Assembly (NCBI RefSeq): GCF_056712565.1 | Contig: NZ_CM160072.1 | Reading direction: 5' to 3' (one strand) | Length of the DNA: 64,000 bases | In this document: positions 15,885 through 18,144 of the stretch, one piece after another | Layout: each line of letters begins with the position of its first letter | Numbering within the stretch: the first letter of the stretch is position 1 | Notes under the pieces: generated by a model | Databases searched by the model: none | What the model was told of the DNA's origin: nothing | The model's input: only the letters and a program-made list of their open reading frames with translations | Position numbers and translations under genes: made by a program

Positions 15885-16343
15885 ATGACAATCACGGACC
15901 TGGTACTGATTCTTTTCATCGCCGCACTTCTGGCCTTCGCGATCTACGATCAGTTCATCATGCCCCGCCGTAACGGCCCCACCCTGCTGGCAATTCCTTT
16001 GCTCCGGCGTGGTCGCATCGATAGTGTTATCTTCGTCGGATTGATTGTCATTCTTATCTATAACAACGTCACGAATCATGGCGCGCTAATAACAACATGG
16101 TTATTAAGTGCACTGGCTCTGATGGGTTTTTATATATTCTGGATCCGCGTTCCGAAGATCATCTTTAAACAAAAAGGTTTTTTCTTCGCCAATGTCTGGA
16201 TTGAATATAGCCGAATCAAAGCGATGAACTTGTCGGAAGATGGCGTGTTGGTGATGCAATTAGAACAGCGCCGGCTGTTAATCCGCGTTCGAAATATCGA
16301 CGATTTGGAAAAAGTTTATAAGCTTCTCGTTTCAACTCAATAA
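15885..16343 (+). CDS. yobD: UPF0266 inner-membrane protein YobD
   Basis: 152-aa hydrophobic [26 protein letters not shown]...; synteny. Confidence 0.75.
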
Positions 16344-16388
16344 GTTATGAATTTAGCCAAAGCTATGTTTAGTGTATTTTTAATAATC

Positions 16389-16408
16389 AGACATAGCTTA
16401 GGCTATAT
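16389..16408 (+). promoter_or_regulatory. Candidate MntR operator upstream of mntP
   Basis: Near-palindrome ACATAGCttagGCTATAT; a second half-site-like AAAGCTATGTTT at about 16358-16370. Confidence 0.4.
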
Positions 16409-16464
16409 TACCTCTTCCCTTATTTGTTTTTTATTTTAACGTTTCATTGATATATAAATCTAAA

Positions 16465-16483
16465 TGAAAATCGTTATCAATAA
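16465..16483 (+). promoter_or_regulatory. Candidate Fur box upstream of mntP
   Basis: AATGAAAATCGTTATCAAT resembles Fur consensus GATAATGATAATCATTATC. Confidence 0.35.
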
Positions 16484-16544
16484 AACAATAAAATAATATA
16501 TTCCAACAGTTGTCTTATATTCTCAAAATATGTTAAGGTTGCGC

Positions 16545-16771
16545 CCTCATTTGGGGAGTAGCTGATTTCCAGATTCCGGAAATGTACGTGTCAACATACT
16601 CGTTGCAAAACGTGGCACGTACGGACTGAACACTTTCAGTCAGGCGAGACCATATGCACATCAATCGCTATGCCTGCATGAACGCGAAAACCATCGCGGC
16701 TTGTTGTTCATGTATGCATGTTTGCTGGGGGCGATGATGTGTTTTATGGATACCCCGGTCAGGACGTTGTC
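16545..16771 (+). promoter_or_regulatory. yybP-ykoY family Mn2+ riboswitch and long 5' leader of mntP
   Basis: Conserved aptamer elements GGGGAGUAG (16553-16561) and GAGACCAUAU (about 16645-16655) directly upstream of mntP. Confidence 0.6.
16654..16737 (+). CDS. Candidate 27-codon upstream ORF in mntP leader ([27 protein letters not shown])
   Basis: ATG immediately 3' of riboswitch aptamer, open for 27 codons, stops 34 nt before mntP ATG; no strong Shine-Dalgarno seen. Confidence 0.3.
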
Positions 16772-17338
16772 ATGAATATCACTGCTACTGTTCTTCTTGC
16801 GTTTGGTATGTCGATGGATGCCTTTGCTGCATCAATCGGTAAAGGTGCCACCCTCCATAAACCGAAATTTTCTGAAGCATTGCGAACCGGCCTTATTTTT
16901 GGTGCCGTCGAAACCCTGACGCCGCTGATCGGCTGGGGAATGGGCATGTTAGCCAGTCGGTTTGTCCTTGAATGGAACCACTGGATTGCGTTTGTGCTGC
17001 TGATATTTCTCGGCGGGCGAATGATTATTGAGGGTTTTCGTGGCGCAGATGATGAAGATGAAGAACCGCGCCGTCGACACGGTTTCTGGCTACTGGTAAC
17101 CACCGCGATTGCCACCAGCCTGGATGCCATGGCTGTGGGTGTTGGTCTTGCTTTCCTGCAGGTTAACATTATCGCGACCGCATTGGCCATTGGTTGTGCA
17201 ACCTTGATTATGTCGACATTAGGGATGATGGTTGGTCGCTTTATCGGCTCAATTATTGGGAAAAAAGCGGAAATTCTCGGCGGGCTGGTACTGATCGGTA
17301 TTGGCGTCCAGATCCTCTGGACGCACTTCCACGGTTAA
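16772..17338 (+). CDS. mntP: Mn2+ efflux pump MntP (YebN)
   Basis: ORF-track frame 16718..17338; recognised start [21 protein letters not shown] (16772); DUF204 repeats. Confidence 0.85.
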
Positions 17339-18144
17339 TAAGAACGCTGCCAGAGGTGAATATTAAAGTCCGTCTGGCAGTCGAACACTTCTTTTGCTGC
17401 CAGTGCTTGCCAGACTTCAGGCTTCGCACGCCAGGCAAACGGCGTCATCTGCAATAATGCGACGGCTTCATCACCGCGAAGACGCATCAGATAACACAAC
17501 TCATCACTCTGCTGTAATGTAAAACCTTTCAGTTGTTCTGCATGAGGTGCATGAAGATGTACTTCATTGTAAATCAGCCCCTTCAGCTCAATTAAGTGTC
17601 TCGGTCCCGGCGTGGCAGTAATGACCCAACCGCCGGGCTTCACTACTCGCACTAATTCTTCTGCTTTACACGGCGCGTAAATACGTATTATGGCGTCCAT
17701 ACTGGTATCGGAGAACGGCAAACGGTGGCTGGAAGCGACACAAAAAGTGACCTGCGGATAGCGTTTCGCCGCCGCTTTTATCGCTACCTTCGAGACATCC
17801 AGGCCAAACGTGGTGATTTCGGGCAACGCATCAGCAAATGCGTGTGTGTAATACCCTTCACCACAGCCAATATCCAGCACCGCCGCGGCCTTTTCATCAA
17901 GCCGTTCCCGCAATTGGCCGACAATTGCATCACGCAGCGGCTGATAATGTCCGGCATCTAAGAATGCGCGGCGTGCTTGCATCATTTCCGCGCTGTCGCC
18001 CGGATCACGAGACCGTTTATGCTGAACGGGCAGCAGATTGACATACCCTTCTTTCGCCATATCAAACTGATGTCGCTGGGGACAGATATAGCTGTTTTTT
18101 TCACGCGAAAGAGGCTGATGGCAAAGTGGACAGGAAAACGACAT
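17335..18144 (-). CDS. rlmA: 23S rRNA m1G745 methyltransferase
   Basis: 269-aa [31 protein letters not shown]... with N-terminal Zn-binding cysteines and SAM-binding motif [10 protein letters not shown]. Confidence 0.85.

Follow-up and report, generated by a model that had tools for sequence, protein, structure and literature searches.

The mntP locus and its riboswitch leader

The window analysed in this work is a stretch of 64,000 nucleotides (contig NZ_CM160072.1, assembly GCF_056712565.1), in which positions 16300 to 17400 are identical (100%) to the chromosome of Escherichia coli ATCC 11775; this part is present in 5,422 of the 5,426 complete E. coli genomes. Between yobD and the oppositely oriented rlmA lies mntP, the gene of a Mn2+ exporter (Table 1). 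Its start codon coincides with the curated start of the K-12 gene (b1821, position 1905688), and over an aligned 320 nt K-12 and the window differ at seven substituted positions. The leader of mntP carries a Mn2+ riboswitch of the yybP-ykoY type and, overlapping it, an upstream open reading frame (uORF) of 27 codons; the K-12 reference annotation contains no leader gene. The properties ascribed to this frame in a preliminary description of the sequence, namely an ATG at 16654, 27 codons with five Cys, two His and three Met residues, and a stop 34 nt (16738-16771) before the mntP ATG, were all recovered as described. No mntP promoter was flagged by a scan with the sigma-70 consensus; a candidate, TTGTCT-18-TAAGGT, was picked out by eye at 16510-16539. 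The 229-nt mntP UTR published by Prakash et al. 2024 (PMC11647493) would place the transcription start at 16543.

Table 1. Genes, riboswitch elements and open reading frame at the mntP locus (positions in the window)
Feature	Position	Strand	Remark
yobD	15885-16343	+	
Mn2+ (yybP-ykoY) riboswitch aptamer of mntP	16545-16656	+	RF00080 match and PGAP feature; 3' boundary placed by P1.1 pairing, see text
P1.1 switch helix, 5' strand CAUUUGG	16548-16554	+	pairs with CCAUAUG 16650-16656
Aptamer L1 GGGGAGUAG	16553-16561	+	
Aptamer L3 GUCAACAUAC	16590-16599	+	
Conserved aptamer element GGCGAGACC	16643-16651	+	
P1.1 switch helix, 3' strand CCAUAUG	16650-16656	+	last three bases are the uORF start codon
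Basal platform helix, 5' strand CCAUAUGCACAUCAAUCGC	16650-16668	+	minimum free energy (MFE) folds, covariation
27-codon ORF and stop	16654-16737	+	ATG 16654-16656, TGA 16735-16737; most likely non-coding in function
Inner hairpin, lineage-specific	16669-16719	+	variable in length and sequence; spans uORF codons 6-22
Apical stem-loop CGCG-AAAACCAU-CGCG	16683-16698	+	within the inner hairpin
Conserved GUUUGCUGGGG element, internal loop	16720-16730	+	its CUGGGG is complementary to CCCCGG
Basal platform helix, 3' strand GCGAUGAUGUGUUUUAUGG	16731-16749	+	includes the uORF stop UGA
CCCCGGU, then mntP AGGA	16753-16764	+	partner of CUGGGG; CCCCGG at 16753-16758
mntP, Mn2+ exporter	16772-17338	+	188 codons and stop
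rlmA	17335-18144	-	

The covariance model RF00080 matched positions 16545-16641 with 40.9 bits (E = 9.6e-10); as the gathering score of 45 was not reached, the aptamer is missed by a default Rfam search and appears when an E-value threshold is applied. In another E. coli record (NZ_AP027759.1) PGAP annotates a yybP-ykoY riboswitch feature on the identical stretch. The element lies 225-229 nt upstream of mntP, between yobD and mntP, in the leader of a Mn exporter gene. The E. coli mntP leader was reportedly recognised as a yybP-ykoY Mn2+ riboswitch by Dambach and colleagues in 2015.

According to Stephen et al. 2025 (PMC12153347), the aptamer of this riboswitch ends at about nt 110, and P1.1 has a 3' half with two alternative partners, one inside the aptamer and one in the expression platform. 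This platform is a single helix that starts to fold at a transcript length of about 175 nt; without Mn2+, P1.1 is invaded at about 205 nt, and the footprint of RNA polymerase covers 14 nt. We took nt 1 of that study as 16547, from the correspondence of A11 to 16557 and of A48 to 16594. On this scale the aptamer end at about nt 110 would be the G of the AUG at 16654, and, allowing for the 14-nt footprint, transcript lengths of about 175 and 205 nt would be those at which the inner hairpin's 3' arm and position 16737 (the last base of the uORF stop), respectively, emerge. The 3' boundary of the aptamer given in Table 1 (16656) was derived from the pairing of P1.1 together with this published aptamer end. 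In agreement with the same paper, the 3' half of P1.1, CCAUA(U)G, has two possible partners, CAUUUGG and the UAUGG that forms the foot of the platform helix. The locus is the one studied by both Stephen et al. 2025 and Prakash et al. 2024 (PMC11647493), and nothing structural differs; the span of the open frame equals the P1.1 3' half plus the published 'single helix', and these two main mechanistic papers on the mntP riboswitch do not mention the frame. The ATG had been placed directly 3' of a recognisable aptamer: the aptamer is indeed recognisable there, but the ATG probably lies inside it, as the last three nucleotides of P1.1.

The start codon itself can be read in terms of P1.1. In the leader alignment described below, columns 9:35 form a C:G pair in 29 unique rows and an A:U pair in the ATG-bearing ones, the evidence for A:U being modest (three unique rows covering ten species). 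The G-to-U change at 16655, which makes the AUG, pairs with A16549 and, to judge from the alignment, looks like a compensatory change within P1.1. As the G-to-U change in the start codon is matched by a C-to-A change in the 5' strand, there would be a reason for the ATG at the level of the RNA.

Composition of the frame and structure of the expression platform

The length of the uORF is at chance level: when the 227-nt leader was shuffled 5000 times with dinucleotides preserved, 54% of the shuffles contained a closed ATG-initiated frame of at least 27 codons. Its composition is not, with Cys, His and Met making up 37% of the residues, whereas shuffled ORFs of 20 codons or more average 16% (P ~0.0008). 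This excess, together with the position beside a Mn exporter gene and the precedent of MntS in Mn homeostasis, speaks for a functional micro-protein that binds Mn2+ or another metal, or that acts on MntP as MntS does. However, the other two frames of the same 81 nt are also rich in such codons (5 and 7 of 27), so that the excess is a property of the region and not of the frame. The 84 nt of the ORF contain ATG seven times, CAT and TGC five times each and TGT four times. CAUG and UGCA each equal their reverse complement, and AUGCAU is likewise palindromic; the arms of the inner hairpin, in which CUGCAUGAAC pairs with GUUCAUGUAUGCAU, are built of such self-complementary CAUG, UGCA and AUGCAU words, which yield ATG, CAT and TGC in any frame and would thereby make Cys, His and Met codons abundant. 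Mapped onto the fold, the Cys/His/Met codons are distributed over the basal helix (codons 1-2), the inner hairpin with its 5' arm (codons 8-9) and 3' arm (codons 17-18 and 20-22), and the conserved UGCUGGGG element (codon 24). We infer that the excess was probably caused by these hairpin words, which is an argument and not a controlled test. The second possibility raised in the preliminary description, that the composition simply reflects constraints of RNA structure, is favoured by the folds, the covariation described below and the word composition.

The span of the ORF forms a single long, imperfect hairpin (-34.8 kcal/mol, z = -2.7), and the whole leader folds at -87.6 kcal/mol (z = -2.9). 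Within this hairpin the AUG sits at the foot of the 5' strand of the basal helix, and the UGA stop pairs with U16661, C16662 and A16663. Three helices were assessed for covariation in 68 distinct leaders: the basal helix, the foot of the inner hairpin and the pairing of CUGGGG with CCCCGG. Across these three helices 96.6% of the cells were standard pairs, compared with 29-47% when the 3' partners were slid by 1-3 columns; changes on both sides were found in 13 of 29 pairs (60 cells), and none of 500 shuffles reached the observed values of pairing and compensation. The basal helix was paired in 95.2% of cells, with nine of its 18 pairs compensated (for example UCGC:GCGA in E. coli vs CUGC:GCAG elsewhere). 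For the CUGGGG/CCCCGG helix the figure was 99.2%, and in the Cedecea/Buttiauxella group C:G was replaced by U:A and A:U by G:C. At the base of the inner hairpin G:C gave way to A:U in 16 rows, and 27 rows had gaps.

These gaps reflect the absence of the inner hairpin from 27 of the 68 distinct leaders, among them those of Enterobacter, Kosakonia, Cedecea and Kluyvera, in which the platform, counted from GAGACC as far as the mntP ATG, measures 77-80 nt vs 128 nt. In every genus the same basal helix is folded around an unrelated inner hairpin. Even within the genus Escherichia the apex of this hairpin is not constant, as the apical stem-loop is largely made up of a 12-nt segment (16686-16697) that is absent from the other Escherichia species.

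Distribution and variation of the frame

A scan of the genome collection for MntP gave 80 loci from distinct species, 77 of them with enough upstream sequence, and 240 nt of leader per locus were aligned. An ATG at the homologous site was present in only 10 of 78 leaders, six from Escherichia (the window included) and four from Citrobacter. The remaining 68 have CCAUAG or CCAUUG after GAGA, with no start at the site; they include Salmonella, the C. freundii group, Klebsiella, Raoultella, Enterobacter, Kosakonia, Cedecea and Kluyvera. In four species an unrelated ATG lies two bases downstream of the site.

Where the homologous ATG is present, the frames that it opens occupy all three phases relative to mntP and differ widely in length: seven codons in C. 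koseri, 22 in C. amalonaticus S646, 23 in Escherichia sp. MOD1-EC7003 (12 nt shorter, in frame), 27 in E. coli, 40 in the E. coli allele with one additional C described below, and 80 in Citrobacter sp. NCU1. In three Escherichia species, E. whittamii and two others, the uORF stop is lost and a frame of 58 codons ends 70 nt inside mntP, out of frame with it, and E. albertii and Citrobacter sp. Awk 4 have an in-frame fusion of the frame with mntP (223 and 228 aa, respectively). Start codon, reading frame, length and position of the stop, by which a leader peptide would be recognised, are therefore not conserved. Codon-level conservation across the Enterobacteriaceae had been proposed as a check on the frame; when this comparison was run, the frame proved broken and the constraint lay at the level of nucleotides and structure. 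No variation occurs in the ATG or the first eight codons of the six Escherichia leader sequences sampled, which is explained by constraint on the RNA and is also compatible with a uORF specific to the genus.

The fused frames raise the question of whether the ATG at 16654, or another at 16718, is an upstream start of an N-terminally extended MntP, since the latter opens in E. coli a 206-aa frame continuous with mntP. This is the least credible of the readings weighed here: in E. coli the frame from 16654 is out of phase and stops before mntP, the curated K-12 start corresponds to 16772, and indels shift the phase of the upstream ATG between genera. An extended MntP was accordingly rejected as a candidate, its phase not being conserved.

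Within E. coli, alleles were counted by exact matches of allele-specific 60/61-mers in complete genomes. The allele of the window was found in 2203 genomes and that of K-12, in which G16696A changes GCG to ACG (Ala15Thr), in 1671; about 630 genomes have other variants. A further allele, found in at least 920 genomes, O157:H7 and O145 among them, carries one additional C after 16692 (AAAACCC instead of AAAACC at 16687-16692). In the encoded peptide 13 residues are kept and then followed by a new tail that replaces the Cys-rich half, so that at least 17% of complete E. coli genomes are without this half of the peptide. The TGA of the shifted frame overlaps the mntP ATG (AUGA), and PGAP annotates it as a hypothetical protein of 40 aa (WP_000547919.1) that shares 4 nt with mntP. 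The additional C falls in the apical loop and the K-12 substitution in the 3' strand of the apical stem-loop. Changes of length confined to the apex are tolerable for an RNA hairpin, whereas a coding sequence would not tolerate the frameshift.

The substitutions point in the same direction. Over 22 gap-free codon columns the window differed from the five other Escherichia leaders by 3, 4, 6, 5 and 5 non-synonymous and by 0, 1, 1, 0 and 2 synonymous changes, respectively. By codon position (for example [4,0,1] and [4,1,0]) the changes were mostly at positions 1 and 2, without an excess at the third. They turned Cys18 into His or Arg, Met21 into Val and Trp25 into Gly; neither purifying selection at the codon level nor conserved positions of Cys/His ligands were found. 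The ratio resembles that of neutral change at the protein level and, with such small counts, serves as additional support for the evidence from the indel.

Nor did the peptide resemble known proteins: the 27-aa peptides did not occur in a collection of 15 billion proteins, they had no NCBIfam match, and no homologue, family or name was found in the protein resources searched. The 40-aa variant is labelled 'hypothetical protein' and, evidently spuriously, 'MFS transporter'. A functional protein was rejected as a candidate, with no NCBIfam family and no cluster. With the Cys-rich half shifted out of frame in so many E. coli genomes, Cys18 variable between sister species, a non-synonymous difference between K-12 and the type strain and a predominance of such changes elsewhere, a functional metal-binding peptide appears largely refuted by the comparative data, and the micro-protein as a whole is very improbable. 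The regulatory or metal-related leader peptide suggested in the preliminary description is not supported by the comparison, given that the start is missing in 68 of 78 leaders, that frame, length and stop differ within Escherichia, and that a frameshift and an excess of non-synonymous changes are observed.

Translation of the leader and relation to known systems

The ribosome may nevertheless initiate at AUG 16654. The best anti-SD duplex upstream of it has an energy of -4.4 kcal/mol, the same as that of the weak, SD-like AGGA of mntP; 18.6% of all ATGs in the window reach this value. Both modelled conformations have the AUG in a pair, but its predicted unpaired probability in the equilibrium ensemble is 0.59. 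Published work describes the mntP leader as untranslated and efficiently terminated by Rho, with about 20-fold induction by bicyclomycin, and Rho termination as partly relieved when Mn2+ switches on translation of mntP. Possible reports of a translated leader ORF at this site, alluded to in the preliminary description, found no counterpart in the searchable literature, where our search returned no paper on an ORF, a leader peptide or an initiation peak at the mntP leader. In the smORFer and acid-stress Ribo-seq supplements the annotated mntP was the sole entry at this locus, which does not constitute negative evidence.

These data bear on another possible role for the frame, as a genus-specific uORF acting in cis: ribosomes of Escherichia would start at 16654 when P1.1 is open, i.e. 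without Mn2+, and their passage, not the peptide, would modulate access to the mntP ribosome-binding site or the loading of Rho, with coupling to mntP through the AUGA overlap in the lineages with the additional C. Such a role would fit the invariant ATG of Escherichia, the SD-like match, weak as it is but equal to that of mntP, the location of the AUG in the switch helix, by which its accessibility would depend on Mn2+, the AUGA with which the 40-codon allele ends on the mntP start, and the action of Rho on the leader. It is nonetheless unlikely, as most Enterobacteriaceae, Salmonella, Klebsiella and Enterobacter among them, have the same riboswitch working without this ATG, and the AUG is base-paired in both published conformations. 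The stop lies anywhere between 80 nt upstream of the mntP start and 123 nt into the gene, or the frame is fused to it, and with a stop so variable there is no consistent coupling geometry. Strong termination by Rho and a low basal expression speak against appreciable translation of the leader, and the literature search found no report of it. Less probable still is a particular consequence for the lineages with the additional C: if the AUG were used there, termination-reinitiation could couple the frame to mntP and give these strains a heritably different basal level or Mn2+ response vs K-12-type strains.

Taken together, the frame is probably not a peptide gene but incidental to the way in which the RNA of the known mntP Mn2+ riboswitch is built. 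The uORF is most likely not a functional element, and the platform underneath it is already known; the frame would be without function, and any initiation at 16654 would be incidental. Regulation is accounted for by the published mechanism, in which Mn2+ stabilises L1/L3, P1.1 and the aptamer. When Mn2+ is lacking, the platform helix, here through its 3' strand (16731-16749), captures the P1.1 3' half together with the AUG; the ribosome-binding region of mntP would be kept closed by the GUUUGCUGGGG and CCCCGGU elements, and Rho terminates transcription in the untranslated leader and early mntP. The body of the ORF runs through the variable inner hairpin and the conserved GUUUGCUGGGG element, and its UGA lies in the 3' strand of the basal helix, which competes with P1.1.

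Short ORFs with a regulatory role are known from metal-responsive, Rho-controlled 5' leaders, such as mgtL in the Mg2+ leader of mgtA in Salmonella and E. coli. Leader ORFs of this type have conserved frames and diagnostic codons, and their translation has been shown. The mntP leader is like them in that the start codon overlaps a switching RNA element and the downstream gene is subject to Rho, but differs in that start, frame, length and stop are not conserved; judged by sequence comparison, the frame fails every testable feature of the mgtL type, i.e. start, frame and codon conservation. MntS, a 42-aa member of the MntR regulon, is likewise a small protein tied to Mn homeostasis and MntP; in contrast to the uORF peptide, which is without homologues and frameshift-polymorphic, it is encoded by a separate, conserved and experimentally verified gene elsewhere. 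The category that fits the frame best is that of spurious ab initio calls of a 'hypothetical protein', and the 40-codon ORF has been called in this way by PGAP.

Translation of a peptide rich in metal ligands would add a sensor at the level of the protein or the ribosome to a well-studied riboswitch, and coupling in the lineages with the additional C, if true, would make the indel a natural frameshift polymorphism that rewires the output of a riboswitch. What our analysis adds to this riboswitch is a comparative picture, consisting of a strongly covarying basal helix, a sequestering helix close to the ribosome-binding site of mntP, an inner hairpin that is dispensable and genus-specific, and an indel polymorphism of E. 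coli in the apical stem-loop of this hairpin. It also illustrates that structured RNA made of self-complementary CAUG and UGCA words can mimic a 'Cys/His-rich micro-protein', and that a one-base indel in a loop can lead pipelines to annotate a 40-aa 'hypothetical protein' in hundreds of genomes.

Reading frames in the mntP leader and the apex of the inner hairpin

Within the riboswitch expression platform, the loop that caps the inner hairpin is polymorphic in E. coli: an extra C after position 16692 (within 16687-16692) takes the leader reading frame from 27 to 40 codons. At its 3' end the 40-codon frame shares an AUGA with the start of mntP, and PGAP has called it as a hypothetical protein (WP_000547919.1). 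Among complete E. coli genomes, at least 920 carry the +1 C allele, O157:H7 and O145 being among them.

The terminator-like stem-loop at the apex of the same hairpin corresponds for the most part to a 12-nt segment (16686-16697) that other Escherichia species do not have, and its stem is weakened by the K-12 allele, G16696A. As one terminator-like site was observed against 0.5 expected, its occurrence may be due to chance.

The start codon at 16718, located within the conserved platform, would add an 18-codon N-terminal extension to mntP; in the leader comparison, the phase of this ATG relative to mntP was not conserved between genera. Two antisense ORFs across the aptamer derive from a mechanical ORF listing, and nothing suggests that they are genes.

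Features of the mntP locus and its surroundings (window coordinates unless stated)
Feature	Coordinates	Strand	Remarks
Inverted repeat AGCTATG/CATAGCT	16361-16367 and 16392-16398		upstream of mntP promoter
Inverted repeat ATAGC-N4-GCTAT	16393-16406		upstream of mntP promoter
Antisense ORF, 43 aa	16533-16664	-	across aptamer
Antisense ORF, 28 aa	16547-16633	-	across aptamer
Terminator-like stem-loop	16683-16698		CGCGAAAACCAUCGCG, then GCUUGUUGUU
206-codon frame	16718-17338	+	from ATG 16718, continuous with mntP
40-codon frame	555-677 of L002		L002, a sequence with the +1 C allele
cspA thermoregulator, RF01766	18235-18695	-	strong Rfam match, 135.6 bits, E 8e-36

Flanking elements

The inverted repeats, which we take to resemble half-sites of the MntR operator, account for two spurious Rfam matches, mir-355 and mir-282, at 16350-16421. 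Downstream of rlmA, the RF01766 match presumably corresponds to a cold-shock gene of the cspA family, both its leader and its coding region.

Leader comparison and the helix beside the ribosome-binding site

Two database records, CACSJR010000017.1 (titled 'Citrobacter sp. 18056') and CACSKA010000003.1 ('Chryseobacterium sp. 18061'), carry an enterobacterial mntP locus, with leaders near-identical to that of Pluralibacter sp. (L071), which suggests that these assemblies are mislabelled or contaminated. In four leaders (L070, L078, L079 and L083), from Cedecea, Enterobacter sp. R1(2018) and Buttiauxella, CUGGGGGC/CCCCGGUCAGGAC is replaced by GUUGGGGAUGG/CCCCAACUGAGG, a fully compensated version of the helix adjoining the mntP ribosome-binding site. 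No other change in the platform shows covariation as clearly.
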